Below, piece after piece: positions 29,445-57,789 of a stretch of DNA of 64,000 nt (the stretch's first letter is position 1; each line of letters begins with the position of its first letter). A program made the position numbers and the translations under genes. Source of the stretch: an uncultured Bifidobacteriaceae bacterium (GTDB lineage Bacteria; Verrucomicrobiota; Verrucomicrobiia; Limisphaerales; UBA11358); contig CAZZPE010000007.1 in assembly GCA_964655855.1 (NCBI GenBank), positions 12,341-76,340 on the forward strand, in the 5' to 3' direction. The notes under the pieces were generated by a model. It was not told where the DNA came from, did no database searches, and worked only from the letters and a program-made list of their open reading frames with translations.

Positions 29445-29456
29445 TGATTTGTTCTG

Positions 29457-30434: not shown

Positions 30435-30649
30435 TTCATTTGTGGTCCCCTGACATCCGCACAACTGCCGATGGAGCCTTTGCCAAGGTCAAACGCCCGG
30501 ACGGTTTCAGTTGCCGCCGGTTCCGCTTTTTCCTTCGGGATGTTGTCTTGCATATCCAGGTTCCTGGATTTTGAGGCCGTCAAGAGGACCGGCCCGCCTG
30601 TTTGATTGTCCGGCGATGCTACGCCTGTGTCCCCGGTCCGGCAATGGCT

Positions 30650-30911: not shown

Positions 30912-31306
30912 GGGGGGTTGCTGGATGTCGGAGCCGAACTCACGTCGGCTGCCACGAAATCATCAAAACCCGCCATTTTCAAGGTTCGGGCGCATTTCAG
31001 GCCGGGAAACGGGAGTTGCGGGATGTCGGAGCCGAACTCACGTCGGCTGCTACGAAATCATCAAAACCCGCCATTTTCGAGGTTTGGGGCGCATTTCAGG
31101 CCGGGAAATGGGAGTTGCTGGATGTCGGAGCCGAACTCACGTCGGCTGCCACGAAATCATCAAAACCCGCCATTTTCAAGGTTTGGGGCGCATTTCAGGC
31201 CGGGAAACGGGAGTTGCGGCTGTCGGAGCCGAACTCACGTCGGCTGCCACGAAATCATCAAAAACCCGCCATTTTCGAGGTTTGGGCGCATTTCAGGCCG
31301 GGAAAC
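30912..31306. repeat. Tandem array, 4 copies of a ~99-bp unit
   Basis: The core gatgtcggagccgaactcacgtcggctgc starts at 30924, 31022 and 31121; a 5'-variant copy (ctgtcggagcc...) sits at ~31219. Units are near-identical throughout, with no unique spacers. Each unit has a small hairpin (agccga...tcggct). Confidence 0.85.
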
Positions 31307-31309
31307 GGC

Positions 31310-40209: not shown

Positions 40210-40244
40210 GGAGCCATGCTAGCCGGAATCCGCCGCGATTTCAC

Positions 40245-40282
40245 GAAAGAAAAAGCCGCGCCGGAAAGCAACGGCGCGGCTT
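40245..40282 (-). terminator. Rho-independent terminator candidate after the glutaredoxin-like gene
   Basis: On the minus strand: agccgcgcc gttgctttcc ggcgcggct, followed by ttttctttcg. Confidence 0.65.
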
Positions 40283-40304
40283 CTGTCCCCACCTCAAATT
40301 CAGT

Positions 40305-40631
40305 TCAAGTCTCGACGAACAAATGCGTATGCTTGCCGCACGACTGGTTGGTCGGCGCTTCGGGCACGCGGTCGTTCGGCTGAACGATGCCGTTCGCCAG
40401 CATCCAAGCCTCCACTTCCTCGCCGCTGACGTCGGGAAGCATCTGGCCGTTGATTTCGACGCACGGGCTTAACGGCTGGCCGGTCTTCAGGATCATTTCC
40501 TGCCGCTGCGCGGGATCGTTGATGACATCGCGGTCCTCGAACGGCAGATCGTATTTCCGCAGCACGGCGCGGACGCCGTTGCTCCAGCCGCAGGTCGGTT
40601 TCAAGTAGGCGATGATTTTCGGTTTTTCCAT
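40305..40631 (-). CDS. Glutaredoxin-like thioredoxin-fold protein
   Basis: Start MEKPKIIAYLKPTCGWSNGV at 40631. The longer ORF to 40937 overlaps tgt and is rejected. Confidence 0.65.
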   Translation of the reverse strand: MEKPKIIAYLKPTCGWSNGVRAVLRKYDLPFEDRDVINDPAQRQEMILKTGQPLSPCVEINGQMLPDVSGEEVEAWMLANGIVQPNDRVPEAPTNQSCGKHTHLFVET

Positions 40632-40699
40632 ATGTTTGCAAATATTGTCTTTGCGATGGCAATAAACTGCCATAACACGGGGCGGATGCAAGCGGAATT

Positions 40700-41842
40700 T
40701 TAACGCTCCGTTTTCTGCCGGCGCTGGGCGAGGACTTTTTGCGACGGCGTGTAGTTGGCGATGAACTTGCGGTGAAATTCCGAGAAGGTTCCGCCGGCAA
40801 TCGCCGCGCGCACTTCGGTCATGATTTTCAGGAACAAATGCGAGTTGTGGACGCTCACCATGCGCAGGCCGAGAATTTCGTTCGCCCGCACCAGATGCCG
40901 GAGATACGCGCGCGTGAAATGGCGGCATGCAAAACATTCGCAGCCTTCCTCGATCGGCCCGAAATCCGTTTTGTAGGCGGTGCCCTTGAGCGCGAACGCG
41001 CCGGTGTGCGTGACCGCCGTGCCGGTGCGCGCGATGCGCGTCGGCAGCACGCAGTCGAACATGTCCACGCCGCGCGCAATCAACTCGACCATCTGCGCCG
41101 GCGTGCCGAGTCCCATCGCGTAGCGCGCCTTGTTCGCCGGCAGATGCGGCTCGGTGATTTCGATGGCCTTCATCATCTCTGGTTCCGGCTCGCCGACGCT
41201 CACGCCGCCGATGGCGTAGCCGTCAAAATCCATCGCGACGAGCGCCCTGGCGCATTCCTCGCGCAGTTCGGCGTTGGAACCGCCCTGGACGATGCCGAAA
41301 ACTTTTTGTCCGTCGGCGCGGGGCTGTTCGCGGCATTCGCCCGCCCAGCGGATGGTGCGTTCGACGGCGAGGCGCTGCTCCCTGGCCGGCGCGTCGTGAG
41401 GCGGGCATTCGTCAAAAACCATCGCGATGTCCGAGCCGAGAACGCGCTGGATTTCCATCGCCTCCTTCGGGCCGAGAAACAAAAGCGAGCCGTCGAGGTG
41501 CGAGCGGAATTCGACGCCGTGCGGCTTGATTTTCCGGATTTTCGCCAGGCTGAAAACCTGGAAGCCGCCGCTGTCGGTGAGGATCGGCTTTTCCCAGTTC
41601 ATGAATTTGTGCAGGCCGCCGGCGGCGGAAATAATTTCAAGTCCGGGTCGCAGGTTGAGATGGTAGGTGTTGCCGAGGATGATTTGCGTGCCCATCTCGC
41701 GAAGCTCGCGCGGGTCGAGCGCCTTGACGCTGGCCTGCGTGCCGACGGGCATGAACACCGGCGTCTCGACGACGCCGTGCGCGGTGGTCAATTTTCCGAG
41801 GCGCGCTTTGGTTTGCGGATCGGTTTTGAGCAGTTCAAACAT
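40700..41842 (-). CDS. tgt: Queuine tRNA-ribosyltransferase (tRNA-guanine transglycosylase)
   Basis: ILGNTYHL, LTDSGGFQV, FGIVQGG and zinc site CxCxxC...H (CECFACRHFTRAYLRH). Confidence 0.92.
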   Translation of the reverse strand: MFELLKTDPQTKARLGKLTTAHGVVETPVFMPVGTQASVKALDPRELREMGTQIILGNTYHLNLRPGLEIISAAGGLHKFMNWEKPILTDSGGFQVFSLAKIRKIKPHGVEFRSHLDGSLLFLGPKEAMEIQRVLGSDIAMVFDECPPHDAPAREQRLAVERTIRWAGECREQPRADGQKVFGIVQGGSNAELREECARALVAMDFDGYAIGGVSVGEPEPEMMKAIEITEPHLPANKARYAMGLGTPAQMVELIARGVDMFDCVLPTRIARTGTAVTHTGAFALKGTAYKTDFGPIEEGCECFACRHFTRAYLRHLVRANEILGLRMVSVHNSHLFLKIMTEVRAAIAGGTFSEFHRKFIANYTPSQKVLAQRRQKTER

Positions 41843-41907
41843 TCTGCAAAGGGTTGATCAAAATGGCCCGGTTGAACATGAAATTTTCAAGTGAGGCTGC
41901 GCCCCGT

Positions 41908-44394: not shown

Positions 44395-45276
44395 GTGCAA
44401 GATTTAATCGCCAAGGCCGGGACGCTGCTGGAAGCCCTGCCGTATATCCAGAAATTCAGCGGTGCGACCTTCGTCGTCAAATACGGCGGCAGCTTCATGG
44501 ACTCGCCCGACGAAACCGTCCGCACCGGCGTCGCGCGCGACGTCGTGTTTCTCGAAGCCGTCGAGATCAATCCCGTCGTCGTCCACGGCGGCGGCAAGGC
44601 CATCACCCGCGCCATGGAAAAGGCCGGATTGAAGGCGAATTTCATCCAGGGCCAGCGCGTCACCGACGAGTCCACGGTGGAAATCGTGGACAAAGTTTTG
44701 ACCGGCGAGATCAATCCGGAAATCGTCAGAACCATCAATGCGCTCGGCGGCCAGGCCGTGGGCTTCGCCGGGCGGGACATTTTCAAGTGCCGCAAGCTCT
44801 GGCTGGACGACCGGGAAAATCCCGGCAAAAAAATTGACATCGGCTACGTCGGCGAAGTCATCGAGGTCAACGTCGCGCCGCTCAAGGAATCCATGTGGTG
44901 CGGCTTCACGCCGGTCATCAGCCCGACCGCGCGCGGCGAGGACGGCAAAATTTACAACTGCAACGCCGACGTGGCCGCCGCAATGTGTGCCATCGCGCTC
45001 AACGCCAAACGGCTCGTGTTCATGTCCGACGTGCCCGGCTTGATGCGCGACCCGAAAGCCCCGGACACGCTCATCGCGCATCTGAAAACCGGCGAGGTTC
45101 CCGGACTGAAATCCGCCGGCATCGTGGACAAGGGCATGATTCCCAAGGTGGACAGCGCCGTCGCCGCCATCAAATCCGGCGTGGAAAAGGTTTCCTTCGT
45201 GGACGGCCGGGTGCCGCACGCCGTGATGCTCGAAATCTTCACCGACAAGGGCGTCGGCACGGAAATCGTGTTGTAA
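44395..45276 (+). CDS. argB: Acetylglutamate kinase
   Basis: FVVKYGGS, VVVHGGG and NADVAAAMCAIAL motifs. Confidence 0.92.
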   Translation: MQDLIAKAGTLLEALPYIQKFSGATFVVKYGGSFMDSPDETVRTGVARDVVFLEAVEINPVVVHGGGKAITRAMEKAGLKANFIQGQRVTDESTVEIVDKVLTGEINPEIVRTINALGGQAVGFAGRDIFKCRKLWLDDRENPGKKIDIGYVGEVIEVNVAPLKESMWCGFTPVISPTARGEDGKIYNCNADVAAAMCAIALNAKRLVFMSDVPGLMRDPKAPDTLIAHLKTGEVPGLKSAGIVDKGMIPKVDSAVAAIKSGVEKVSFVDGRVPHAVMLEIFTDKGVGTEIVL

Positions 45277-45277: not shown

Positions 45278-45693
45278 TTCCGATTGGCGATTGCGGATTG
45301 CGGATTTGTATGAACCCGGGCGAATTAAAACAGCGGACGAAAGATTTTGGCAAGCGCGTCATCAAGATGATTGAAGCCTTGCCCAAAAACACCACGACGA
45401 CCGTCATTGGCCGCCAATTGCTGCGAAGCGCGACTTCGGTTGGTGCGAATTACCGGGCGGTTTGCCGCGCCAAGTCGCGTGCCGATTTCGTTGCGAAGCC
45501 CGGAATCGTTGAGGAAGAATGCGACGAATCACTTTACTGGATTGAAATGCTGGTCGAAACAAATCAAATAAAGCCGGCGTTGGTTTCAAATTTGGCAAAA
45601 GAGGGCGAGGAAATACTTGCCATTGTCGTCACATCCGCTAAAACCGCACGAATGAAAAACAATCCGCAATCCGCAATCGCCAATCCGAAATGA
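45278..45693 (+). mobile_element. Inverted-repeat-flanked four-helix-bundle gene cassette inserted between argB and argD
   Basis: Left arm 45278-45306 (ttccgattggcgattgcggattgcggatt) and right arm 45660-45688 are inverted repeats sharing a 25-bp perfect core. The whole cassette fills the argB-argD spacer. Confidence 0.45.
45310..45693 (+). CDS. Four-helix-bundle protein (23S rRNA intervening-sequence protein family), short form
   Basis: IGRQLLRSATSVGANYRAVCRAKSRADF and ECDESLYWIEML motifs. The C-terminal tail NNPQSAIANPK is encoded by the right heptamer repeat. Its TGA overlaps the argD ATG (ATGA at 45690-45693). Confidence 0.75.
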   Translation: MNPGELKQRTKDFGKRVIKMIEALPKNTTTTVIGRQLLRSATSVGANYRAVCRAKSRADFVAKPGIVEEECDESLYWIEMLVETNQIKPALVSNLAKEGEEILAIVVTSAKTARMKNNPQSAIANPK

Positions 45694-46979
45694 AAAACAT
45701 TGTTTCAACGCCGCCGCCGATTGTGCGGAATGACTACGAATCCATCCGCGAGCTCTTCGCGAAAAATGTCGTGCCGAGCTACGGCCGCTTTGAACTCGTG
45801 TTGAGTCACGGCGCGGGCAGCTACGTTTTTGACGTCGCCGGCAAACGCTATCTCGATCTCGGTGGCGGCATCGCCGTAAACTGTCTCGGTCACGCGCATC
45901 CGGCCATCACCGGGGCGCTCGTCGAACAGTCCAAGAAACTCATCCACGTCTCGAACCTGTATTTCACCGAGCCGCAGGGCCGGCTGGCCGCCGAAATCGT
46001 CAAACGCACTGGCGCGGGCAAGGTCTTTTTTTGCAACAGCGGCGCGGAGGCGAACGAGGGGCTTTTCAAGCTGGCTCGGAAATTTGGCCACGACGAAGGC
46101 CGGTTTGAAATCCTGACGGCGACAAATTCCTTTCATGGCCGGACGATGGCCGGCATCGCCGCCACTGGTCAGGACAAGGTGAAAAAAGGGTTTGAGCCGG
46201 CGACACCGGGTTTCCGGCACATTCCTTTCAACGATCTGGCGGCGGCGCGGGCGGCGATTTCGCCGGCGACCGTGGCCATTTTGATCGAAGGCGTGCAGGG
46301 CGAAGGCGGCGTCACGCCCGCCACGCCGGAGTATTTGCTCGGACTGCGGCGGTTGTGCGACGAGAAAAAACTGCTGCTGCTCATGGACGAAGTGCAGTGC
46401 GGCTATTTCCGGACGGGAAAATTCCAGAGCTTCCAGCGGATTCTCGAAACTGCCAATCCGCAATCCGAATTCCTGCCCGACGGCGTTTCCATGGCCAAGT
46501 CGCTCGGCGGCGGATTTCCCATTGGTGCGTTCTGGGTGCGCGCGCCGTATGCGGATTTGTTGGGCGCCGGCACGCACGGCACGACCTACGGCGGCACGCC
46601 GCTGGCCTGCGCCGTCGCGCTGAAAATCTTTGAAGTCGTCGAGCGCGAGCGGCTGGATGAAAACGCCCGCAAGCTCGGCGAGTGGCTGAAAAGGGAATTG
46701 GAGCGGCTCGCAAAAGATTGTCCCGGCGTCGTCAAAAACGCGCGCGGCCTCGGCTTCATGCTCGGACTTGAACTGGTGGAAAAGGAAAAAATTCCGGCGT
46801 TTGCCCCCGGCGACAAACCGGCGTCCATTCAAATGACCCACCGGCTGCAACAGGCCGGCGTGCTGGTGATTCCCGCCGGCGCGCAGGTGATCCGCCTGCT
46901 GCCGCCGCTGAATTTGAAGCCGCAGGAAGCCGGCGAAGGCATTGCCAAGATCGAGGAAATCGTCAAATCGCTCGCCTGA
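45690..46979 (+). CDS. argD: Acetylornithine aminotransferase
   Basis: Class III aminotransferase motifs: FCNSGAEANE, LLLMDEVQCG, SMAKSLGGGFPIGA. Contains an aatccgc-type repeat at 46451-46473. Confidence 0.9.
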   Translation: MKNIVSTPPPIVRNDYESIRELFAKNVVPSYGRFELVLSHGAGSYVFDVAGKRYLDLGGGIAVNCLGHAHPAITGALVEQSKKLIHVSNLYFTEPQGRLAAEIVKRTGAGKVFFCNSGAEANEGLFKLARKFGHDEGRFEILTATNSFHGRTMAGIAATGQDKVKKGFEPATPGFRHIPFNDLAAARAAISPATVAILIEGVQGEGGVTPATPEYLLGLRRLCDEKKLLLLMDEVQCGYFRTGKFQSFQRILETANPQSEFLPDGVSMAKSLGGGFPIGAFWVRAPYADLLGAGTHGTTYGGTPLACAVALKIFEVVERERLDENARKLGEWLKRELERLAKDCPGVVKNARGLGFMLGLELVEKEKIPAFAPGDKPASIQMTHRLQQAGVLVIPAGAQVIRLLPPLNLKPQEAGEGIAKIEEIVKSLA

Positions 46980-47081
46980 ACCAAAAGCTGGGGGCGTTTA
47001 AGCGGTGGGCACAGATTAACACGTTCTTTTTTTTATTCCGATTTTGGAATAGAACTCCTTGTGTTTGGTTCCCTGCAACAA

Positions 47082-47114
47082 AAAAAGGCCGGGACGGTTT
47101 CCCGTTCCGGCCTC
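47082..47114 (-). terminator. Rho-independent terminator after FN3 gene B
   Basis: On the minus strand: ggccggaacgg gaaa ccgtcccggcc, followed by ttttttt. Confidence 0.75.
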
Positions 47115-47179
47115 ATTTGCCGAATCCCATTTGAGCTTTCAGAATTTCAGCATTTGCCATGGTGGCCGTCCGCAAGGAC

Positions 47180-47842
47180 TCAGTCCACAATTTTGGAGCC
47201 GGGCATGGACCAGTCGCTTTGGCCGGTGCTGCCGCCCAGCGCGCGCGCCCGCACCTGATACACCGTGCCGGTGGTCAGGCCCGCCAGCGTGATGGTGCGC
47301 GCCTGCGTGGAAAACATGGCCGTTGTCCATGCGCCGGTGCCGGTGCAAGTCTGCACCTCGTAACCCACCGCGTTGGTGATCGGCGTCAGATGCACATCCA
47401 GTTGCGTGGAGATGTCGTTGTCTATGCCCGTGATGGACGGCGCGTCCAGCGGCGACTGCGCGCGGTTGGTGCTGGCCGCCTGGTAGCCGGAGGAGAGCAG
47501 CATTGGCAAATTTGTGCGTGCCACCGTTTGGACGTAAAAACCATTGGCGTCCAGGCCTTCAAACGCAACCGCCAGCGCGGCGTTTTTCTCCGCCGTCTGC
47601 GGGGTTCCGGCATCCACGGCGGCTGCGATGGCCGCCTGCAGGGAATTCATGCGCGTGGTCATGTCCACGGGCAATGTCGGATCGGGCGGCACCGGCGGCG
47701 CCAGCGGCACCGGCGGTTTGGGGAACGCCGCGTTGCCCGTCATGCATTTGATGATCCAGGCCATGATTGACACCACCATGGACGCCGGCATTTTTTTGTA
47801 GCCCAGGCTGACGCGGTTGTTTTTTGTGTTTGATGTGTTCAT
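47180..47842 (-). CDS. Hypothetical protein with a C-terminal fibronectin type III domain (paralog B)
   Basis: 220 aa. LAGLTTGTVYQVRARALGGSTGQSDWS. Homologous to 31792..32412. Confidence 0.7.
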   Translation of the reverse strand: MNTSNTKNNRVSLGYKKMPASMVVSIMAWIIKCMTGNAAFPKPPVPLAPPVPPDPTLPVDMTTRMNSLQAAIAAAVDAGTPQTAEKNAALAVAFEGLDANGFYVQTVARTNLPMLLSSGYQAASTNRAQSPLDAPSITGIDNDISTQLDVHLTPITNAVGYEVQTCTGTGAWTTAMFSTQARTITLAGLTTGTVYQVRARALGGSTGQSDWSMPGSKIVD

Positions 47843-48224
47843 TTTCCTTCAACTTTCGTTTGTGGTTGTGAGGCCCGGCAATGCCGGCGTGGTCTGGCAG
47901 CGGCGGCTTGAACCGTCGTTGTTTTCCAGCCATTGATCAGCGCGCATGCATCAGGCAACGCTGCGACCGTTTTGCCAGGGTCTCCTGTTCAATGTCACCA
48001 GGCCGTCTGGAGGAAACCATCCGGCTTCGCGCCGGCCCAGGGTGACACCACATCGTAAAGCAAACCGAATGCCAAGTTCTAATCCAGATTATTTATCAAT
48101 AGGTGTAATTCTTTATCTAAAACACAAAACGCGCATAACTTATTTATTGCCAACCACTTGCCGGTGCAAATTGTTTTGGGGCGCGGGATCGGGGTTGTTC
48201 CTGTCTACGGGAAAAAACCGGCTC

Positions 48225-48525
48225 TGGGACGGTAATATGTGCCTCTGATACGGGAATATCCGCCTCTGATATTACCGTCTTTGAGGCAGTTCTTGCCGTC
48301 TTGGACACGGATATTACCGTCCCGGCCAACGAGATTATCGCCTCCGTCTGTGATATTCCCGTCTCAATCATCGGGATTCCCGTCTCGGACTCCGATATTG
48401 CCGTCTCGGTCAACGAGATTATCATCTTCGTCTCTGATATTACCGTCCCGGTTATTGAGATTTCCGTCTTTGCCTTGGGAATTCCCGTCTCGGTCATCGA
48501 GATTCGCCTCTCAATGTCACAATTT
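48225..48525. repeat. Array of ~12-13 21-bp repeats upstream of FN3 gene B
   Basis: Plus-strand units: gatattaccgtcccggccaac / gagattatcgcctccgtctgt ... The conserved core is GAnATTnCCGTC, which is GACGGnAATnTC in the gene orientation. Confidence 0.85.
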
Positions 48526-48769
48526 CCATTTTTATGGAAAAAGCGGGCAAAAAGGGCGCCCCGCAGCCAAAATCGGCGCGAACGCAGTGCCGACCGGAAA
48601 TGCGAAACACATGAAACACGCGGGCGCTTTGACCGCTGATTGCGCGGATTTCTGTTTTCCGGTTTGTCATTCTTGTGTGCCTTTTTGTGGCGATTAAGTC
48701 TGGCCACCCGGTTTGCCTGTTGTGTATGGCCGGTCTTTCAATCCGCCTCTTGAACAACCCCACTTCCGC

Positions 48770-49546
48770 CTAAAAATTCAAGTTAAGGAACTTTCGGCGC
48801 GCTTCATTGCGGTTCTCCGCGCCAAGTTTTTTATAAATGCTGTGAAGATGGACATGCACGGTGTTCGGCGAAATTTTAAGCAGGCAGGCTATGTCCTTGT
48901 CACAGCGGTTGGAGCAGACCTGGAGCATGACTTGCTGTTCCCGCGCGGTTAAACCCCACGAGAACACGTTTTCGCCAAGCGTATGCAGCCATTGGACGAT
49001 CGTTTTCTCCGAGTGCGCGCATAGCGCTGGAAAGCCCTCCAACGCCTTTTTGACCGCCGAAATGGTGTCCGAAGGCGAACTGGGCTTGACCACGTAACCC
49101 GACGCGCCGGCTATCATGGAGGAAATGAAACTGTCGGTGTCCGTTCGCGCCGAGAACATCACCACCGGCAAGTCAGGCAGCAATGCCTTGATTTTTTTGG
49201 TGCATTCAATCCCCGTCATTTCGGGCATGGTAATATCCATCAAAACGGCGCGGGGCGGGACTTGTTTGATGCAGTCAATGGCCAGATTGCCGTCCAGATA
49301 ACTGTCCAGCGTCCAATCGGCGGCCAGCACCTTGAAAGTCTGGCGCATGGCGGCATGAATGCTCGGATCATCATCCACCAGCGCGATGTGAATTGCCTGG
49401 CCGGAGGGCGCAGACTGGCGCTGGCCCGCAAGTTTCGCGGCAACCGCCGCTGGCGTTGATGGCCTTGCCAGGGATTTTGCCGGAACCAGTGCAGACGATG
49501 GCCTGCCTGATTTCGTCGCAGCGTCAAATGTTACGCGCGATCCCAT
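48770..49546 (-). CDS. Response regulator, REC plus LuxR/FixJ-type HTH
   Basis: Likely start MGSRVTF at 49546. REC: IALVDDDPSIH, VLMDITMPEMTG. HTH: LTAREQQVMLQV...IACLLKISPNTVHVHLHSIYKKLG. No histidine kinase lies adjacent. Confidence 0.8.
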   Translation of the reverse strand: MGSRVTFDAATKSGRPSSALVPAKSLARPSTPAAVAAKLAGQRQSAPSGQAIHIALVDDDPSIHAAMRQTFKVLAADWTLDSYLDGNLAIDCIKQVPPRAVLMDITMPEMTGIECTKKIKALLPDLPVVMFSARTDTDSFISSMIAGASGYVVKPSSPSDTISAVKKALEGFPALCAHSEKTIVQWLHTLGENVFSWGLTAREQQVMLQVCSNRCDKDIACLLKISPNTVHVHLHSIYKKLGAENRNEARRKFLNLNF

Positions 49547-49783
49547 GACTTCAGAGGTTTTCCATTGGTGAATCCGGATAAATTCAATTTGACAAAAGCA
49601 TGTTCCATGCCCTGCCGATCCAATCGTTTGATAAATCCAAGACCATTGGGGCGGCAAGAGCAAGGGGAAAACGGGCTGTTTTCCCGCTAAAATGGTCTAA
49701 ACTATGTCTAACCCTTTTATTGTTCAAAAAACGTTTGCTTATTCAAAGGCGCTTATGATTTACTGGCATCAATCGGCAAGGCC

Positions 49784-51148
49784 ATGTGGCGGGACCGATG
49801 GGAGTGGCATCTGACGGATATGCACGGAGCAATTGGAATTTGTCAAGACGCGCGGAAGCACAAGGAGCGAGAGGATGGATTTTGCCCACGATGGATCGCG
49901 CTGGTGCCGAAATCTAACCAACATTCGTCCACGGTTAGTTGCCGAGTCCGCGCTCAATTAATTTCTTCGCTTAGGCTCATATTCATTGTTCAACTTCTCT
50001 TCTGTTCAACCTATCTTTTTGCCGCGGATGCTGTAAGCCTGAGCGGATATTTCACTGTTCTTACACAGGATGGACTTCATAAGCCTTTACCTCAACTATG
50101 CAGCAGCAATGAGTTTCAGGTTTTGGTTTGCCGTGATGGTCGCTGGGCCATTAATGTGCGTTCATTGGCAAAGGAAGACGATATCTCTTATTTAACATTT
50201 GACGGTAAGGATACGTATTCTGTTCATTACCAGAATTCAATTATGGGAATGACAAATGGTCAGCCTGACATTATTGCGACCGAGCCATTTACAAATCATA
50301 TCAATCGCGCGTCGATAAGCGCAGGCGGTTATCCATTTAACGTTTCAGACCCACAAGGCAGGGCACAAGTATTATGGCTTGCGTTTGATGCGGGCTCGTA
50401 TCTTCATGACCATCCACAGAAATCAATGCCTCTCCCATGGGCATATGTAAGATGGAACTTGGCCGCCTATGGATTCCGAATGGAGTATGAGTTAAGTGAG
50501 AATGCGCCCAACGCTATTCGAAGCTTGAAATTTATCAGGTCAACGGCGCTCGACCTGCCTGATAATGAGGAATTTGATCGTCCCGAACTTGACAATATCA
50601 ACAGGTCTGTATTCGAGAAGACGCTTGAACAACGCAAGAAGGAGTTGCCGGATGGTTTTGTAGAAGGGATTTTTCGGGGTTCCGAAAGCACGAACTATCA
50701 CAGCATGGAACTTCCTCTTGCATTTGCTTTCAAAGTTTTTAACCCGCATTATAAAAAGGATGATTTTTCTCGGAAATACGAAGGAATTGTTACTAATGTA
50801 GCGGAGGCAGATTCATTAAACTTCTCCCTTCCTCCAATCCAATCTGAACTTCGTGTTAAGGACGAACGCAGGAGATATAAAAGTGCCGCTAAGATAGAAA
50901 CTGAAGTGGATTATCGCTTAAAGCCGGCAGAGAATTGGCTATCGAAGGATGCGTTAGCTTCGCAACAGTTTGAAGCTGTTATACATGACCCGGTATCGGA
51001 CAGGAAACGATACCTTGGCAAACTGGACAAAGAGTTAATTGTAAAGATTGCCCTTCTAATTTCCACAGTTTTACCCATTATAATATTTATCATTATCCGC
51101 TTCAAACCCAAATTACCTCCATCAAAAAAATGGTATACAATACAATAG
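49784..51148 (+). CDS. Hypothetical membrane-anchored protein (no recognised family)
   Basis: Internal signal/anchor LISSLRLIFIVQLLFCSTYLFAADA and a C-terminal TM segment IALLISTVLPIIIFIIIRF. AT-rich codon usage. The start is uncertain (49784 or 49820). Confidence 0.5.
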   Translation: MWRDRWEWHLTDMHGAIGICQDARKHKEREDGFCPRWIALVPKSNQHSSTVSCRVRAQLISSLRLIFIVQLLFCSTYLFAADAVSLSGYFTVLTQDGLHKPLPQLCSSNEFQVLVCRDGRWAINVRSLAKEDDISYLTFDGKDTYSVHYQNSIMGMTNGQPDIIATEPFTNHINRASISAGGYPFNVSDPQGRAQVLWLAFDAGSYLHDHPQKSMPLPWAYVRWNLAAYGFRMEYELSENAPNAIRSLKFIRSTALDLPDNEEFDRPELDNINRSVFEKTLEQRKKELPDGFVEGIFRGSESTNYHSMELPLAFAFKVFNPHYKKDDFSRKYEGIVTNVAEADSLNFSLPPIQSELRVKDERRRYKSAAKIETEVDYRLKPAENWLSKDALASQQFEAVIHDPVSDRKRYLGKLDKELIVKIALLISTVLPIIIFIIIRFKPKLPPSKKWYTIQ

Positions 51149-51217
51149 CGTTAGAATAAGAATTTGAATGGAAGCAACAAAACAAACAAAACAAACAACA
51201 CAACAACAAAAAAGTAT

Positions 51218-51538
51218 ATGAAATTAAAAATGAAATGCGTAAAGACAGCGATTACCATTATGTGCGTTATTGCCGTGTCAGCGCCGTTGGCGCGGGCATT
51301 TACATATTACGATTGCCTTGCGGACTCGAGCACCGGCAGTCGTCCCTGCAAGCAGCCCACAGAAGGCAACCCCGATTGTTCTGGAAAAGCATGCGATTGG
51401 ATAAATGAATTCGACGATTGCCAAACCGTTAAGTTCGTATCGGTGTGCCTTTCGTGTGATACTGATATTACGACTGTAGTCATCGGGACGTGTCAAAAGG
51501 GTGGAGATGGTAGCTGTTATTGCTGGCCTGTAATGTAA
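51218..51538 (+). CDS. Small secreted cysteine-rich protein (10 Cys in an ~85-aa mature part)
   Basis: Start MKLKMKCVKTAITIMCVIAVSAPLARA (signal peptide). Mature sequence FTYYDC...C...C...C...C...C..C...C...CYCWPVM. Preceded by an A/C-rich leader. Confidence 0.55.
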   Translation: MKLKMKCVKTAITIMCVIAVSAPLARAFTYYDCLADSSTGSRPCKQPTEGNPDCSGKACDWINEFDDCQTVKFVSVCLSCDTDITTVVIGTCQKGGDGSCYCWPVM

Positions 51539-51714
51539 CTGTATTTGCAGCCAATAATTTCATGGTTGCTATCATAACGCTATTCTGCCGACAGGGCGGA
51601 TTAATAAGTTATTAAGGCCAACCTCGCTGTTATGCTGTCGTGAATCATAACAGCGAGAGTTGGTCTGTATTAAATTATTTCCAGGCAACACCCCAAAAGT
51701 TTTCGAGGGTGATT

Positions 51715-52200
51715 ATGAGGAAAATTATGCAATCAACACCTGTTCAATTTTTCCTGCGGTCAGCAGGTATATTGCTGTTGATTACAGCGTTCGCAAAGTT
51801 GGGAAGTAGTTTTGGCAGCGCTAAATACTTGGAGAGTTTAGATCCTTTGCTGTCAATTTCATTTCGACACCTTTTTAGGATTGTCGGAATGGTCGAGTTG
51901 GGCGTTGCGTTCATATGTTTTTTTGGAAAGCCGACAAGCATGAGAGCCTCTTTTGTGGCGTGGCTGGCTACAGCCTTTGCTCTGTATCGCTTTGGATTGT
52001 GGTGGATTGATTATCACAAACCATGTAGTTGTTTGGGAAATCTAACAGACGCTATCCATCTATCACCAGAAGCTGCAGACGCAGTTATGAAAATAATTTT
52101 GGCGTATCTGCTCATCGGCAGCTATGTAACCCTCTTCTGGCGCTGGCGGCAGCGCAGGCAATTGGCATCTGGCATTTCGGAGGTGGGAGCTAGTAGTTAG
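51715..52200 (+). CDS. MauE/DoxX-like redox-associated membrane protein (copy 1)
   Basis: Four hydrophobic segments and a HKPCSCLGN motif (MauE-like CxC). Paralog of 55502..56110. The family call is from a remembered pattern. Confidence 0.5.
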   Translation: MRKIMQSTPVQFFLRSAGILLLITAFAKLGSSFGSAKYLESLDPLLSISFRHLFRIVGMVELGVAFICFFGKPTSMRASFVAWLATAFALYRFGLWWIDYHKPCSCLGNLTDAIHLSPEAADAVMKIILAYLLIGSYVTLFWRWRQRRQLASGISEVGASS

Positions 52201-53724
52201 ATGCCGGTCTTTTGTGCTATGAATTGGCGTGGCGGCATCATTCAAATTGGCGGCCAGCGCGAGTCGGCTCTTGTTTCAATGAACTTATATTTGAGTCGGC
52301 TCAAGACGGGCGTGTTACGAACTGGAAGGTTTTTTCAGCTAATACAAGTTGCGTTGCCATTGGCAATCGTTGTCGTTTGTTTGTTTGGATATATGTTGGA
52401 TCGCTATTGTGGCATTTTTCGCGATTTGGAATCGGTGTTGCCATCGGTTCAATGGATGCTGTTGGTTTGCCTCGCTGCCTGGTGCGGCACGTTTCTTTTT
52501 CTGACGTTCAACCTGAATGATCTGTTACTGATTGCACTGCTTGTCATCGCGGTGGCCGCGTTTTTCATCGGCTATGCAGTATCTCAACCGGCGATGGATG
52601 CCATCATTCTTTTGGCGGGCGTGACGTTGGGAAAGGGGGTGCGCTTCGCTCTGATGGAAGATGGAAGATGGAAGATAAAAGATGGGGCGGAGAAAGAAGT
52701 CAGAAGTCAAAAGTCAGCAGTCAGATTATTTCTAATTGGGTTGGTTGCTTTGCTGGCGTTTGCGTCATGGTGGCATTTGGATGTGGCGCAACACTTTTAT
52801 CCCGCCGGTGTGCGCTGGACCGGGCTTTGGGATAATCCAAATATTTACGGAATGTTGATGGGAGCGGGGGTGATGCTCGCAATAGGGTTGATTGCAGCAA
52901 AGCAAAAAGCAGAAAGCGGAAAGCTGAAACTATTGCGCTCTTTGCGCTCTTTTGTGGCTATCAAATCCGCAATCCGCAATCCGCAATCCGCAATTCTCTT
53001 CATTGCGGTTTTGATGATGGGGGTGGGATTGTTGTTCAGTTACAGCCGGGGTGCATGGGTGGGGACGGCGGTTGGTTTGCTTTATCTGGCAAAGGTGCAT
53101 GGCAGGTTCAAATGGCGGTCTCTGAAAGTATTTCTGCTTTCTGCTTTCTGTTTTTTGGTTTTGATCTTTGGCGTTTGCTTTTTCTGGAATTCCACATCGG
53201 ACACAGGCCCGTGGTATCTCAAGCGCATGGATTTAAGCCGCGCATCGGCGCAACACCGGGTGTCCGCTTGGCGCGGCGCGGTTCAAATGATGCGGGATCA
53301 TCCGTTTGGCGTCGGCTGGAACAAGGCGGTTGAAACTTACGACAAGAATTATTCGCCGCCAGAAGACGGCGCGGCAGCGATTACCACGAATGATTATTTG
53401 ATGCTGGGAACGCAATTAGGGTTTCCGGGGTTGGTTTGTTTCGTCACTTACGTTGCGCTGTGCTTTCGCAAGTGCGGAGCGCTGAGTGCGGAGTGCGGAA
53501 TTAAAGAACTCCGAACTCCGAACTCCGAATTCCGAATTAAGACGGCTTGTCGCGCCGGTGCTTTAACCATGCTGGTGGCGTTTTGGTTTGATGGAGGATT
53601 GTTCAAGCTGGCAACGGCAGCGGTGTTCTGGATTTTGCTGGAATTGGGAACGGAAATTCAAAAACAGCCCGCCTTCACCTTGTTTCGGCGCGGTTGCGCC
53701 GAAGCTACAACGACAGCGGAATAG
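52201..53724 (+). CDS. O-antigen ligase / Wzy_C family polytopic membrane protein
   Basis: FSYSRGAWVGTAVGLLYL and HRVSAWRGAVQMMRDHPFGVGWN motifs. Its loops are encoded by tandem heptamer repeats. The start is uncertain. Confidence 0.7.
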   Translation: MPVFCAMNWRGGIIQIGGQRESALVSMNLYLSRLKTGVLRTGRFFQLIQVALPLAIVVVCLFGYMLDRYCGIFRDLESVLPSVQWMLLVCLAAWCGTFLFLTFNLNDLLLIALLVIAVAAFFIGYAVSQPAMDAIILLAGVTLGKGVRFALMEDGRWKIKDGAEKEVRSQKSAVRLFLIGLVALLAFASWWHLDVAQHFYPAGVRWTGLWDNPNIYGMLMGAGVMLAIGLIAAKQKAESGKLKLLRSLRSFVAIKSAIRNPQSAILFIAVLMMGVGLLFSYSRGAWVGTAVGLLYLAKVHGRFKWRSLKVFLLSAFCFLVLIFGVCFFWNSTSDTGPWYLKRMDLSRASAQHRVSAWRGAVQMMRDHPFGVGWNKAVETYDKNYSPPEDGAAAITTNDYLMLGTQLGFPGLVCFVTYVALCFRKCGALSAECGIKELRTPNSEFRIKTACRAGALTMLVAFWFDGGLFKLATAAVFWILLELGTEIQKQPAFTLFRRGCAEATTTAE

Positions 53725-53731
53725 CGGAGAA

Positions 53732-55489
53732 ATGAACATGAACACTGGACAAAAAATAGATCGTTACCTTCGGCTCTTTCCGGGCATTTGGATTGTTCTC
53801 AGTGTCATGGTTTTCCTGACGGCGCGCATCGTATGGTGCCGACCTCATTCGCCACACCATATCCAACAACTGGCAAAAGACTTCTCGTCAATTGATGCGT
53901 TTCGGGATCCTCCGGTTGTCAATCACGCCGGAACTTTGATTGGAATGGTTCACAATACCCCGCAGGGAATGGGCGTCTTTATTGCAAACATTCCAGCCAA
54001 AACGGAACAAACAATATGCGAGGCAAAAGAAGCGGATGTAGTTGGCGATCCCCATGTGTTCGGATGGTCGTCCGATGACAGCACTTTTGCTTATCGGTGG
54101 AACATTAACTTGCATTTTGTGAACACCAATGCAGTGGAATGTCCCGGTGCAATACCAACCCCTTATCTCAAGTCGTTCACATGGTTGTCGCCGGACAGTT
54201 GTGCCTACATTGACAGCAGCACAAACGCTGACAGTGATACACAGTTAGCAATTGCCAAACAGATTAATGGAAGATGGCAGGAAACCGCCTCGTGGCCGCT
54301 GACGGCAACCAATGGAACGCCGCGCTCGCTGCTCGCAATGGGGTCTAATGCGGTTGTCTGGTATGCAGGCAATTCAATCTGGCGAATGGACCTTTCAACG
54401 GGTGAAATCAAGCCCTTGTATTCAACTCCACCCAAATGCGCAATCAGCAGCCTTTCCTACTCGAAGGACACCGGACAATTCCTGTTTATTGAGACCACAA
54501 ATCGCGCCCGCACGGTCTCACTGTTCGCCTTTTCAAACGGCTCAAAGGTTTTGAAAAGAACCGGCAAAACACTTATAAGCGATGCCCAATGGATCAACAA
54601 AGGGAAAGGATACGCGTATTTGATTCCCGCCGGGGATAATGCATCACTGTTCATTCAGGCCGGGGATGGCCAAGTGAAAAGAACGTTTTTTTCCGATGGC
54701 CAAATCGCTGGAATATTTTGCGACGGGGAAAGTCCGAACGTGTATGCTCTCGCGTCCTATACAAATGAGGCGCCAAGCATTTGGCTATGCAATACGGCAT
54801 CCGGAGATGCCCAGTGCTTGCTTTCTCCGTGGGGCTTTGCGGCTTTCCCAGTTTGTTTTCAACCGGCATTGGTTGATTACGCTCCAATGCCTGACAAACA
54901 CGAGGAAAGATTCGTTCTGATTCCTCCCGCGAATTTTTCGCGTCATAAGAAATATCCGCTGGTCATCGGTATGCAAGGATATGATTGGATGAATGTTGCC
55001 CACGCAACCTATTCACAAGCAATTGCAAATCGTGGCGCTTTCGTGGCTTTGACCGGTTATCATTTTACGCGAGAGACGCCCGAAGCCCTGATAGCTTATA
55101 CCAACAATGTCCTGGCAGTCTATAATCAACTGGCGAAAAATCCAAATGTGGACACCAACCGGGTCTATCTTTTTGCGTTCAGTTTAAGCACCATCGTTGT
55201 TAACCATTTGATTGACGACTACCCGCGCCGATGGCGTGGTGTCATGCTATTTGGCCCAACGGCCGGCCTGCCGACACCAAAAGCGGGACGGTTCCCTCCC
55301 ATATTGGTAACCGCTGGCTCGGATGAAGAGTGGTTATGGAAACAATTCCCGGCTTATCAGGAAAAACTGGCACAGGCCGGAATCTCCATGGAATGGTTCG
55401 TTCATTCCGATGAGGGTCATATAGAGCGGTCTCAAAACACCATGTATCAGCGGACATTGTTGATGGGGAAAATGATTTTTGGCGATTGA
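53732..55489 (+). CDS. Membrane-anchored beta-propeller plus alpha/beta-hydrolase (S9 prolyl-oligopeptidase-like) protein
   Basis: ATG at 53732 after ggaga. N-terminal anchor GIWIVLSVMVFLTARIVW. C-terminus YPLVIGMQGY, LFAFSLST (nucleophile-elbow-like, not canonical GxSxG), GSDEEW, SDEGHI. Confidence 0.55.
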   Translation: MNMNTGQKIDRYLRLFPGIWIVLSVMVFLTARIVWCRPHSPHHIQQLAKDFSSIDAFRDPPVVNHAGTLIGMVHNTPQGMGVFIANIPAKTEQTICEAKEADVVGDPHVFGWSSDDSTFAYRWNINLHFVNTNAVECPGAIPTPYLKSFTWLSPDSCAYIDSSTNADSDTQLAIAKQINGRWQETASWPLTATNGTPRSLLAMGSNAVVWYAGNSIWRMDLSTGEIKPLYSTPPKCAISSLSYSKDTGQFLFIETTNRARTVSLFAFSNGSKVLKRTGKTLISDAQWINKGKGYAYLIPAGDNASLFIQAGDGQVKRTFFSDGQIAGIFCDGESPNVYALASYTNEAPSIWLCNTASGDAQCLLSPWGFAAFPVCFQPALVDYAPMPDKHEERFVLIPPANFSRHKKYPLVIGMQGYDWMNVAHATYSQAIANRGAFVALTGYHFTRETPEALIAYTNNVLAVYNQLAKNPNVDTNRVYLFAFSLSTIVVNHLIDDYPRRWRGVMLFGPTAGLPTPKAGRFPPILVTAGSDEEWLWKQFPAYQEKLAQAGISMEWFVHSDEGHIERSQNTMYQRTLLMGKMIFGD

Positions 55490-55501
55490 CACACCTCTAA
55501 C

Positions 55502-56110
55502 ATGACAACTACCCCCATTGCCATTCCGAAGGTCAAGGCCATAAACGGCGCGGCGCTATTCAGCATGTCGCGCGCCAGCTTGTTCGTGCTTTTAGCCGGG
55601 ACAATTCTCACATTTACCGGGATGGGTGCAATTTCCGGCGGTCTAGCCAAAGATCAACTGCTGGATTTGGCTGACCCTATTTTTAGCCTTTCGTTTCGAG
55701 GCCTGATGCTGGCTTTCGGAACAGCAGAAATGCTTGCCGCCTTTCTTTGCCTGTTCACGGACATGAGAACATTGAGTTTGGGGCTTGTCGCCTGGCTATC
55801 CGGCAATTTTATGGTTTATCGAATTGGATTGTGGAGCATGGGCTGGCACCATTCTTGTGGCTTCCTGATTGATCCGCTCGGGCTTTCATTGACAACCACC
55901 GATATCATCTTCAGTGTGTCTTCGACTTTTCTGCTTGTCGGCAGCGTTGCCACGCTTTGGCATGAGCGCCGGACGCTTCAAGCGGTAACATTTCTCAAAA
56001 TATCCTGCATTTCATGCGGCGGACACATTGAATTTCCCACCGCAGCCGTCGGGCAAAAAATCCAATGCCCGCACTGCGCAAAAAACATCACGCTGTTGAG
56101 TCCGGCTTGA
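55502..56110 (+). CDS. MauE/DoxX-like membrane protein (copy 2) with a C-terminal zinc ribbon
   Basis: Homologous to 51715..52200 (ADPIFSLSFRGL, YRIGLW, HHSCGFL), plus CISCGGHIEF...CPHCAKN. Confidence 0.5.
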   Translation: MTTTPIAIPKVKAINGAALFSMSRASLFVLLAGTILTFTGMGAISGGLAKDQLLDLADPIFSLSFRGLMLAFGTAEMLAAFLCLFTDMRTLSLGLVAWLSGNFMVYRIGLWSMGWHHSCGFLIDPLGLSLTTTDIIFSVSSTFLLVGSVATLWHERRTLQAVTFLKISCISCGGHIEFPTAAVGQKIQCPHCAKNITLLSPA

Positions 56111-56205
56111 AACATCCCTGCCTTAATTTCGGGGGCCGTGAATTTTTTGTGGCGCGAAGACAGTAAATCGTGAATCGTAAGCCCCGTGCCGATTTATGAA
56201 ATAAC

Positions 56206-56829
56206 ATGACGCCCGCCGCCCACAGGCATCTGGCCAAAAGCGACCCGGTGATGCGGCGGCTCATCCGCGAGCACGGGCCATGCGACCTTGTGCCGGAGAA
56301 GCGCCGTCCGCCATTCCAGTCGCTTGTGCTGGCCGTGGCGCACCAGCAGCTCAATGGCACGGCGGCAAACACGATTCTGACCCGGTTCAAAAAACTTTTC
56401 CCCGGCCGGAAATTCCCGCACCCGGAGGATTTGGCGAAGGTGACGGACGCGCAAATCCGCGCGTGCGGGTTTTCGTTCGCCAAGATCAAATCCATCCGCG
56501 ACATCGCGGAAAAAACGCTGTCCGGCGTTGTGCCGTCGTCACGGCGGATTGTAAAATTGAGCGATGACGAAATTGTCGCGCGGCTGACGGAGGTTTGCGG
56601 CGTGGGGCGCTGGACGGTGGAGATGCTGCTGATTTTCCAGCTTGGCCGGCCTGATGTTTTGCCGGCGGGCGATTTCGGCGTGCGCACCGGTTTTCGCATC
56701 GCCTACAAAAAACGCGGGCTGCCGGATCCGAAGGAGCTGCTCGCGTTCGGCGAAAAATGGAGGCCGCACCGGACGACCGCCGCGTGGTTTCTCTGGTGCG
56801 CGGCGGACGCGGCGAAGGAAAAGAAGTGA
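56206..56829 (+). CDS. DNA-3-methyladenine glycosylase II (AlkA-like, HhH-GPD)
   Basis: LTEVCGVGRWTVEMLLIFQLGRPDVLPAGDFGVR. Confidence 0.8.
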   Translation: MTPAAHRHLAKSDPVMRRLIREHGPCDLVPEKRRPPFQSLVLAVAHQQLNGTAANTILTRFKKLFPGRKFPHPEDLAKVTDAQIRACGFSFAKIKSIRDIAEKTLSGVVPSSRRIVKLSDDEIVARLTEVCGVGRWTVEMLLIFQLGRPDVLPAGDFGVRTGFRIAYKKRGLPDPKELLAFGEKWRPHRTTAAWFLWCAADAAKEKK

Positions 56830-56892: not shown

Positions 56893-57789
56893 ATGAAACA
56901 TTTGTTGTCGTTGGAAAAATTGCCGGTTGCGGACTTTGAAACAATCCTGCGTGACACCGCCGTTTTCAAACGCGAACGCGGCCACCACAAAAAGCAGCCG
57001 CTGGCCGGGCAAACATGGGCGCTGATGTTTTCCAAGCAGTCCACGCGCACGCGGCTGTCGTTCGAGGTCGGCATCCGCGAACTGGGCGGGCAGCCGATGT
57101 TTTTGAGCGCGGCGGACATCCAGTTGGGCCGCGGCGAGCCGATCAAGGACACGGCACGCGTCATGGGCCGGATGGTTCACGGCGCCGTCATCCGCACGTT
57201 CGCGCAGCGCGATGTGGAGCAGTTTGCCGAATTTTCAAAAATCCCGACCATCAACGCGTTGACCGATGACGAGCATCCGTGCCAGATTCTCGCGGACGTT
57301 TTCACGTTTCGGGAACAGCGCGGCTCGATCAAAGGCAAAACCGTCGCGTTCATCGGCGATGGCGCGTGCAATGTGGCGAACTCGTGGATCTGGGCGGCGG
57401 GGAAACTCGGCTTTGAACTGCGCATCGCGTCGCCGAAAAAATTCCAGCCGTCGCCGGAATTGCTGAAGCGCGCCGGTGAAAATGTTTCCGTCACGTCAGA
57501 CATCCAGGCTGCCGCGCGCGGCGCGGATTTGCTCTACACCGACGTGTGGATTTCGATGGGCAAGGAGGCCGAGGCGAAGGAGCGCGTCCAGATTTTGACC
57601 GGTTACCAGATCAACGCCGCGCTCGTGAAGCTGGCCAAACCTGATGCGCTGGTGATGCACTGCCTGCCGGCGTATCGCGGCAAGGAGATTGACGAGGAAA
57701 CTTTGGAAGCCCATGCCGGCACGATTTTCGAGGAGGCGGAAAACCGGCTCCATGTGCAGAAGGCGATCATGAACTGGGCGGTGTCCTGA
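56893..57789 (+). CDS. argF: Ornithine carbamoyltransferase
   Basis: SKQSTRTRLSFE, HPCQILAD and HCLPAYRG motifs. Confidence 0.92.
   Translation: MKHLLSLEKLPVADFETILRDTAVFKRERGHHKKQPLAGQTWALMFSKQSTRTRLSFEVGIRELGGQPMFLSAADIQLGRGEPIKDTARVMGRMVHGAVIRTFAQRDVEQFAEFSKIPTINALTDDEHPCQILADVFTFREQRGSIKGKTVAFIGDGACNVANSWIWAAGKLGFELRIASPKKFQPSPELLKRAGENVSVTSDIQAAARGADLLYTDVWISMGKEAEAKERVQILTGYQINAALVKLAKPDALVMHCLPAYRGKEIDEETLEAHAGTIFEEAENRLHVQKAIMNWAVS

Follow-up and report, generated by a model that had tools for sequence, protein, structure and literature searches.

In Escherichia coli, the O-antigen gene cluster lies between the conserved genes galF and gnd. Replacement flexible genomic islands have been described in aquatic bacteria, O-chain or 'glycotype' islands among them; such islands occupy one site in all strains, fulfil an equivalent function with different genes, are exchanged by homologous recombination and usually specify exposed structures (Lopez-Perez, Martin-Cuadrado and Rodriguez-Valera 2014, PMC4033161). 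Here we describe an interval of 9,226 bp (positions 46980-56205) within the arginine biosynthesis (arg) cluster of a 64,000-nt stretch of contig CAZZPE010000007.1, hereafter called the window, which is most closely related to genomes of Limisphaerales (Verrucomicrobiota) that were assembled from metagenomes of peat, bog and soil. The interval holds an FN3-domain gene with an array of 21-bp repeats, a response regulator gene and an operon of six plus-strand genes, spanning 49.8-56.1 kb, whose products all have a signal peptide or membrane helices and include a MauE-family protein, a small Cys-rich protein and a Wzy_C-family protein. MauE helps to mature the Cys-rich small subunit of methylamine dehydrogenase. 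It can also replace DsbB, with a CXC motif as its active site (bioRxiv 10.64898/2026.03.05.709764), and PglL/PilO-type O-oligosaccharyltransferases, for which the criterion is a Wzy_C domain together with a PglL_A motif, are encoded beside their target proteins (PMC3643930).

Our preferred reading, which we hold to be likely, is that the interval is a replacement-type flexible genomic island inside the arg cluster that carries an envelope operon. Like the described islands of this type, it combines a constant position, divergent genes of similar function and sharp boundaries against near-identical flanks; its versions coexist in a population, mobility genes are absent, exchange would proceed by homologous recombination and the G+C content is below that of the host. 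Unlike them, it carries no polysaccharide pathway, its cargo being six genes that form a compact module around an exported Cys-rich protein; moreover the island itself was inserted recently, at a junction within a biosynthetic operon, and it belongs to uncultured peat Verrucomicrobia. With O-antigen and capsule clusters it shares low G+C, a membrane protein of the Wzy_C family, conserved flanks around extremely diverse alleles and a conserved element just upstream of the first gene, JUMPstart/ops-like in position. It differs from those clusters in that the operon, of only ~6 kb, has no glycosyltransferases, sugar-nucleotide synthesis genes or Wzx flippase, and in that its leader has no JUMPstart similarity (no search for the ops motif was made). 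Because the genes that define polysaccharide clusters are absent, the O-antigen analogy covers population behaviour and not biochemistry.

The argD-alkA junction in related genomes

Related loci and contigs that were compared with the window are designated by L numbers. A scan with ArgD, taking one genome per species, gave 80 loci with ArgD 77-86% identical, onto which all window proteins were mapped. Both argD and the alkA-like gene were present in 75 of the 80, and alkA directly followed argD in every one of these 75; argF and then usually rluA lay downstream of alkA wherever the contig was long enough, and a convergent rluA-family gene is also present at the window's arg cluster. Between the argD stop and the alkA start there were -4 to 935 bp in the 75 species, as against 9,226 bp in the window; this gap was at most 13 bp in 32 of them, ten of which showed an ATGA or GTGA overlap. 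In the closest relatives (L005, L040 and L080, with arg proteins 82-97% identical) the spacer measures 6-9 bp, and the codons flanking the junction in L005 are the same as in the window. No island gene was found within 10 kb of argD in any of the 75 related species.

Since these 75 relatives keep argD and alkA adjacent without any island gene, the comparison supports a lineage-specific insertion of the interval into a formerly coupled argD-alkA junction, and the ancestral order was argB-argD-alkA-argF with coupled junctions. A preliminary description of this DNA had proposed that the interval is an insertion into an ancestral arg operon, and synteny across relatives gives a clear answer in favour of the insertion. 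The ancestral operon stands as a formerly coupled cluster and has to be refined in its order, the glycosylase gene being an old member and no passenger. The placing of argB, argD, the AlkA-like gene, argF and the genes of the interval in that description agrees with open reading frames (ORFs) and profile matches (Table 1). Throughout the clade the arg cluster has kept the AlkA-like HhH-GPD gene, which often overlaps the argD stop: a gene of the DNA-repair type is stably associated with arginine genes.

Junctions of the arg cluster are permissive throughout the clade, the argB-argD gap varying from 35 to 3,966 bp and the argF-rluA gap from 3 to 5,671 bp. Small genes have entered them repeatedly. 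In the argD-alkA spacer of six species (L006, L022, L025, L033, L049 and L081) there is a DUF559 gene (137-164 aa, Vsr-like endonuclease fold, Pfam E=1e-29), and the same spacer holds a lipoprotein gene in L024 and L068 and a zinc-ribbon ORF in L029. The insert of the window is of the same general kind as these and about 10 times larger than any other found there; between the relatives' inserts and the island there is no meaningful similarity, only two 21-24-nt words and one 30-codon tblastx hit. Between argB and argD of the window, overlapping the argD start, lies a 23S_rRNA_IVP-family gene of the four-helix-bundle type; since only five related loci (L020, L025, L039, L048 and L065) have one, it is a second, smaller and separate insertion in the cluster. 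A further recombination boundary near the arg cluster is seen in L001, a conspecific contig that is 99.2% identical to the window from 42622 onward and only 86% identical across the tgt gene just upstream (L001 5303-6919, window 40228-41843).

The island also bears on how the arg genes may be transcribed. Downstream of argD there is now a gene in convergent orientation, whose terminator looks bidirectional. Only 95 bp separate the operon from alkA-argF, which have the same orientation and lie downstream of it, and this spacer contains no strong terminator; alkA-argF are probably transcribed either by read-through from the island or from a new promoter within those 95 bp.

Divergent alleles of the operon

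When metagenomes were scanned with p454, the product of the first operon gene, we found three contigs (L098, L099 and L100) that match only its first 42-78 residues. They were compared over flanks of 0.5-4 kb, argD and the FN3 gene being covered in L099 only. At the amino acid level, the flanks of L099 are 97% (argD), 99.5% (FN3), 95% (regulator) and 97% (alkA) identical to those of the window, and those of L098 and L100 are 95-98% (regulator) and 100% (alkA) identical. Within these flanks all three contigs keep the six roles and the gene order, with intact reading frames, and the identities between allele pairs are as low as those listed in Table 1.

The left edge of the variable part, at ~49,900, is abrupt: nucleotide identity falls from >95% to <50% within one or two 100-/200-bp bins in each of the three contigs. 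At the right edge identity is regained over 200-600 bp, at ~55,950 in L098 and L099, and the 3′ end of p202 forms the right anchor of the variable cassette. In L100 identity is regained at ~52,900, inside the Wzy_C gene (p507), through a graded zone of 86-92%; L100 is thus a mosaic whose last two genes are those of the window type.

There are at least four alleles of the operon, and a single metagenome (Ga0181529) holds three of them, namely the window type (L097), L098 and L100. Alleles resemble proteins of other lineages more than they resemble one another: for the S9-fold protein, for instance, identity to foreign proteins is 71% and 49% as compared with 27-28% between alleles. This fits old allelic lineages passed around. 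The divergence is steepest in the small Cys-rich protein and its neighbour, as would be expected if a recognised surface or a specific interaction were under selection. Judged by these alignments, the inner 6 kb (~49,900-55,950) appears to be a hypervariable replacement cassette that is exchanged among strains. The S9-fold protein of L098 is an 835-aa form (5051-7558) with an inserted Laminin_G_3/LamG domain.

The regulator gene is divergent from the operon, and we infer that its product controls it; the regulator had been called an orphan, and indeed no kinase gene occurs within the interval. The core of the leader (53 nt, 49817-49869) is invariant in five copies, among which is a duplication in L099. 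Diverged copies of the leader, 61-75% identical at the peptide level, occur in short ORFs of other contigs (P0102, P0172 and P0182), which points to additional alleles, or to related loci, with the same leader. The leader was rejected as a structured RNA, its fold z-score being +1.1 and Rfam also giving no match. We likewise rejected the first 44 codons of the p454 ORF, which are 61-80% identical to short unrelated ORFs, as a repeat of the repetitive extragenic palindrome or miniature inverted-repeat transposable element (REP/MITE) kind; they are the leader that the alleles have in common.

Products of the six operon genes

The mechanically called ORF of p454 starts at 49784, within the leader, and the true start is likely the GTG at 49904. 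This protein has no Pfam match and 211 distant homologues, and Foldseek matched it to LolA (E=3e-5, target template modelling score ~0.55) from a weak model, with a mean predicted local distance difference test (pLDDT) value of 66.7. The next gene encodes p124, a precursor of 106 aa with 12 Cys, two of the 12 inside the signal peptide, and with no homologue in Pfam or the PDB. Its counterparts in L098, L099 and L100 have 9-11 Cys and follow right after the LolA-like gene.

The Cys-rich gene is directly upstream of that for the MauE-family protein p186, and in the other alleles it adjoins the MauE gene or lies near it. The MauE protein has a CXC motif in all four alleles (CSC, CGC, CRC and CAC). 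The last gene of the operon encodes a second MauE-like protein, p202, which is 33% identical to p186; p202 and its alleles are without CXC. The arrangement resembles the MauE pathway of disulfide formation (bioRxiv 10.64898/2026.03.05.709764) in that the gene for a CXC MauE adjoins or lies near one for a small exported protein with many Cys in four of four alleles. It differs from the MauE/methylamine dehydrogenase system in that the operon has no other mau genes and no MauD-type thioredoxin partner, and in that its second MauE-like paralogue has a zinc ribbon and no CXC.

For p507, the roles of WaaL, Wzy and O-oligosaccharyltransferase are indistinguishable by sequence. As in PglL/PilO-type systems, the gene for this Wzy_C-family protein stands near a candidate exported target, and modules of other species adjoin prepilin-like (N_methyl) genes; unlike in those systems, PglL_A (PF15864) was not detected in p507 and there are no glycan-synthesis genes nearby. 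The model of p583 has an N-terminal membrane helix and matched dipeptidyl peptidase IV, acylaminoacyl peptidases and prolyl oligopeptidases in Foldseek with E~6e-24; Ser482 and His561 are invariant across 30 homologues and the divergent alleles, and an acidic residue lies near 529-530. Since a Pfam Peptidase_S9 sequence match is absent from p583, it would be at best a distant member of the S9 family. A protein of 969 aa in L092 (12395-15304) is a fusion of Wzy_C with an S9/alpha-beta-hydrolase domain, the hydrolase part giving weak, faint Pfam hits only; because both are fused there, a functional link between Wzy_C protein and hydrolase is supported.

A sequence search of the PDB gave nothing for p454, p583 and p124 and only two chance-level matches for p507 (E~0.8), and defence-system and phage libraries gave no informative match for the six operon proteins. 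Taken from the gene content, the operon probably yields a product rich in disulfides that is located at the surface or secreted and is subject to diversifying selection.

Table 1. Features of the window and of related loci, with amino acid identity between allele pairs for the operon proteins. Positions are those of the window unless an L number is given; GC3 is the G+C content at third codon positions.
Feature	Position	Strand	Evidence and remarks	Identity between allele pairs
argB (acetylglutamate kinase)	44395-45276	+	TIGR00761 E=6e-64; also in relatives; conserved left part of arg cluster	
23S_rRNA_IVP-family small gene	45298-45693	+	PF05635 E=6e-15; GC3 0.57	
argD (acetylornithine transaminase)	45690-46979	+	TIGR00707 E=1e-124; left flank of insertion	
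Whole inserted interval	46980-56205	.	9,226 bp, in place of the 6-9 bp spacer of the closest relatives	
Intrinsic terminator of FN3 gene	47082-47117	-	G+C-rich hairpin, then T run; also faces argD end	
FN3-domain gene B (220 aa)	47180-47842	-	Weak fn3 match	
Degenerate 21-bp tandem array, upstream of FN3 gene B (47842-47180, -)	48206-48504	.	42/84-bp super-period; ~360 bp upstream of the gene	
LuxR/NarL-type response regulator (receiver + GerE)	48770-49546	-	PF00072 E=2e-21, PF00196 E=1e-12	
Conserved promoter/leader region	49640-49903	+	Alignment of alleles; left anchor of variable cassette	
Leader copies	49817-49869; L098 457-582; L099 4099-4290 and 4536-4652; L100 581-724			
p454, tentatively LolA/LolB-like	49904-51148	+	Signal peptide, beta-rich domain, C-terminal membrane helix (membrane-anchored)	20-23% or undetectable
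p124, small secreted Cys-rich protein	51218-51538	+	Signal peptide; missed by gene callers; 9-12 Cys across alleles	No detectable similarity; tandem duplicate in L100
p186, MauE-family membrane protein with CXC (CSC)	51640-52200	+	PF07291 E=1.8e-6, 28.7 bits against a cut-off of 27	28-44%
p507, polytopic Wzy_C (O-antigen ligase/polymerase-like) membrane protein	52201-53724	+	PF04932 E=6.5e-21	56-76%
p583, membrane-anchored, S9 prolyl-oligopeptidase fold	53738-55489	+	Beta-propeller + alpha/beta-hydrolase; model pLDDT 88.5	27-34%; extra lectin-like domain in L098
p202, MauE-like four-helix membrane protein with C-terminal CxxC...CxxC zinc ribbon	55502-56110	+	Weak zinc-ribbon matches	44-62%
alkA-like HhH-GPD glycosylase gene	56206-56829	+	PF00730 E=5.6e-16; right flank of insertion	
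argF (ornithine carbamoyltransferase)	56893-57789	+	TIGR00658 E=5e-110	
Array upstream of FN3 gene A	31404-31584		Gene at 31792-32412 (+)	
Array upstream of FN3 orthologue	L094 9403-9657		FN3 gene at 10001	
Array upstream of FN3 orthologue	L095 9388-9640		FN3 gene at 10001	
Array upstream of FN3 orthologue	L096 9538-9737		FN3 gene at 10001	
Array with non-FN3 gene	L079 7135-7323		Gene at 7523-8239 (+)	
Array with non-FN3 gene	L072 5147-5308		Gene at 4978-4256 (-)	

FN3 cassette and 21-bp arrays

The left part of the island, of ~1.8 kb, is made up differently. FN3 gene B has an fn3 match below the Pfam cut-off (E=0.0013, 19.3 bits against 25) and 424 homologues, the best 120 of which are 65-83% identical, its own cluster excepted; a paralogue within the window, gene A, is 42% identical. 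The gene also matched phage tail-protein families, through the FN3 domain only. Three orthologues on long contigs (72-81% identical) lie in three unrelated neighbourhoods, and the nucleotide similarity of the cassette begins ~25 nt before the start codon, includes the terminator hairpin, which is kept at the nucleotide level downstream of the orthologues in L094-L096, and excludes the upstream region.

The 21-bp array that had been noted in the interval is indeed present, in degenerate form; at the left end the units are inverted, and an A/T-rich patch recurs every 21 bp. Such arrays were found upstream of every FN3-family gene examined, that is, of the two window genes and of the three orthologues in unrelated contexts. 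They lie ~200-400 bp upstream, often with a super-period of 42, 63, 84 or 105 bp, and it is the period that is conserved and not the sequence of the unit. It is possible that they are phased protein-binding sites or curved DNA. Because both the orthologues and the arrays recur in unrelated contexts, the left 1.8 kb of the island is a copy of a clade-native, place-changing cassette. Conceivably, 21-bp arrays upstream of FN3 genes signal a type of relocating cassette that is new.

In L079 and L072 a similar array lies ~170-200 bp upstream of a different gene, of 238-240 aa, that is inserted between argB and argD. The two encoded proteins share the C-terminal motif W-P-x-x-D-x-A-N-A-x-[IV]-R, have no Pfam match and are not FN3-like; they were rejected as homologues of the FN3 gene, with no match at E=3.2. 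Since these genes are not FN3-like, the layout of an array plus a gene is not bound to a single gene family.

Several other observations concern the surroundings of these cassettes. Immediately before the array of FN3 gene A there are four tandem copies of a 99-bp unit (94% matches) at 30913-31308. Just upstream of the same cassette is a second low-G+C patch (27042-30464, minus strand, G+C 0.45-0.51), which encodes an 800-aa TIR-domain protein (PF13676 E=1.5e-28) beside a 335-aa HNH-endonuclease protein and has the look of a defence-type island. Purine-poor, A/C-rich leaders of the ACAAACAA type, without a Shine-Dalgarno motif, precede the Cys-rich gene of the window (51160-51217) and the FN3 orthologue of L095 (9950-9999), and are possibly a translation-initiation signature of well-expressed genes in the clade.

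Base composition and related modules

The G+C content of the whole window is ~60%; it is 0.42-0.53 across 48-56 kb as compared with ~0.60 elsewhere. GC3 is 0.42-0.57 in the six operon genes and 0.73 +/- 0.09 in 21 long ORFs of the rest of the window. With a host-like FN3 gene (G+C 0.63, GC3 0.81), an intermediate regulator (GC3 0.67) and a low operon, the island is real and compositionally heterogeneous. The interval had been described as AT-richer as a whole: the G+C and GC3 profiles bear this out for 48-56 kb and the six genes, show the regulator to be intermediate and contradict it for the FN3 gene. The variable operon parts of all alleles have 46-48% G+C.

Parts of the module recur, in variable order, at unrelated loci in other Verrucomicrobia. 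The commonest sets are an S9-fold gene with a MauE-like gene and a MauE gene with a Wzy_C gene; prepilin-like (N_methyl/DUF1559) genes often occur with the module, and sometimes a gene for a LuxR/GerE-type regulator does. In one genome the module lies on another contig and the genome's own arg junction is intact (L088 and L070). In most of these loci the module has a G+C content below that of its surroundings; since this holds for most homologous modules, low G+C is a property of the module family and no proof of a distant donor. In L091 (6022-7083 and 14994-17480), genes for a phage-type integrase and a TrwC relaxase stand on either side of the module, which lies beside a GTPase-type defence cluster; its place in that genome is a mobile or highly variable region.

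Alternative explanations

The alternative that survives best concerns what the operon does. It could be a peptide-based strain-recognition, signalling or bacteriocin-like system in which the Cys-rich protein is the active molecule and the alleles are specificity groups, as in pherotype or bacteriocin/immunity loci; the membrane proteins would mature, export, sense or protect against the Cys-rich protein, and the conserved LuxR-type regulator would respond to it. The small secreted protein and its neighbour are the most divergent of the set and the regulator is conserved, proteins with a peptidase fold and disulfide oxidases typically act as partners in maturation, one allele (L100) has the Cys-rich gene as a tandem duplicate, and several alleles occur together in one sample. 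Yet the operon has no histidine kinase, ABC exporter or recognisable immunity gene and no match to known families of ribosomally produced peptides with post-translational modifications, bacteriocins or defence proteins; at ~80-125 residues after removal of the signal peptide the protein is large for a pheromone, and the Wzy_C protein would be left without an obvious role. We regard this explanation as possible and rather unlikely.

To much the same low degree we would entertain the idea that the operon is an undescribed system of Verrucomicrobia for maturing a small, disulfide-rich protein specific to the strain and for displaying or releasing it. It would consist of a MauE oxidase, an S9-fold processor, a LolA-like carrier and a Wzy_C-type transferase, under the control of the orphan LuxR-type regulator and the leader, and the alleles would be recognition or specificity groups that serve kin discrimination, pheromone- or bacteriocin-like action, or as phage-receptor decoys.

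It is improbable that the interval is an integrative element, transposon or prophage remnant that has lost its machinery. An insertion of atypical composition would suit such an origin, as would the module of L091 between integrase and relaxase genes and the small selfish-looking genes (DUF559, IVP) at the arg junctions of relatives. However, searches of all island proteins with Pfam, NCBIfam, PHROGs and PADLOC found no integrase, transposase or relaxase domain, and no tRNA was found in the window. The borders (46940-47240 and 56040-56260) were searched for att-like repeats and share only 8-nt matches, the longest shared word being at the chance level of 300 shuffles; there are no terminal direct or inverted repeats beyond chance, and a repeat search of the whole region gave only the 21-bp array and chance pairs. 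The earlier remark that no integrase and no flanking direct repeat had been spotted thus holds after domain searches and border comparison. Viral contigs have no relatives of the FN3 gene or the S9-fold gene, Rfam gave no match at the gathering threshold for the window and none at E<=1 for 46.9-50.1 kb, and the noncoding pieces of the island have no copies elsewhere in the window or among the 96 loci searched. Internal diversity with conserved flanks also fits homologous recombination better: the island is not a classic mobile element but a flexible genomic island of the replacement type.

That the block is ancestral to the clade, with the window as the old state, and was lost from the arg clusters of relatives is very improbable: related modules and FN3 cassettes do occur elsewhere in genomes of the clade, so that their genes are not foreign there, but the block is absent from this site in 75 of 75 related species, the three closest relatives have 6-9 bp spacers, and clean loss of 9.2 kb would not repeatedly recreate an overlap or a gap of <=13 bp (32 species). 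It is just as hard to believe that the island or its allelic diversity arose from metagenome assembly or binning that joined different organisms, even though all the sequences are metagenome-assembled and hypervariable regions are prone to misassembly: the island is no assembly artefact, since independent assemblies, made in different projects and from at least five metagenomes, show junctions of the window type with 99.2-100% identity, and the variant contigs span both flanks, or one flank and the whole operon, with intact frames, a kept gene order and coinciding breakpoints.

Some points weigh against our interpretation of the interval as a replacement-type island with an envelope operon. 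The carriers of the alleles, judged by their flanks, are near-identical strains, and some could be sister species. Low G+C by itself would be no proof of foreign origin, and the block could have come from the same genome or from a donor. No intermediate state, with the FN3 cassette alone or the operon alone, was found among the relatives, and the cassette and the operon may have arrived together or in two events. As to the envelope, no glycosyltransferase, epimerase, sugar-nucleotide or flippase domain was found in the operon, Wzy_C being the only one of this kind, and p507 has no PglL_A motif (PF15864) at E<=0.01. The LolA-like fold of p454 can be proposed only tentatively from its model, and exposure of the product, the role of the Cys-rich protein as a MauE substrate and read-through into alkA-argF are likewise putative.

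Proposed scenario and significance

A scenario that accommodates these data starts with the entry of the 9.2-kb block into the argD-alkA spacer in an ancestor of the species, with neither site-specific recombination machinery nor target duplication. The block comprises two modules, one being the array and FN3 cassette of host composition and the other the regulator, the leader and the low-G+C six-gene envelope operon. Within the species the inner 6 kb exists as very divergent alleles that keep the six roles between flanks 95-100% identical, and the alleles would be swapped by homologous recombination, with the regulator and leader as left anchors and the 3′ end of the last gene and alkA as right anchors, or sometimes with an anchor inside the Wzy_C gene. 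The operon may make and handle a small disulfide-rich exported protein, of which the CXC MauE would oxidise the cysteines, and the LolA-like, S9-fold and Wzy_C proteins may carry, trim, attach or glycosylate the envelope product. Selection on an exposed structure, by phages, predators or strain recognition, would maintain the diversity.

The population pattern is already known from other bacteria; what may be new is the cargo and the array-linked cassette. The cargo is a recurrent six-gene envelope module without a characterised counterpart; because it pairs a CXC MauE with an exported Cys-rich protein, the newly proposed MauE disulfide pathway could be put to a concrete test on it. As a replacement-type hypervariable island in uncultured soil and peat Verrucomicrobia, the interval would extend a pattern known mainly from marine isolates. 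It also indicates that a large island without mobile-element machinery can break a tightly coupled junction of a biosynthetic operon, and that the downstream arg gene may now be under foreign control.

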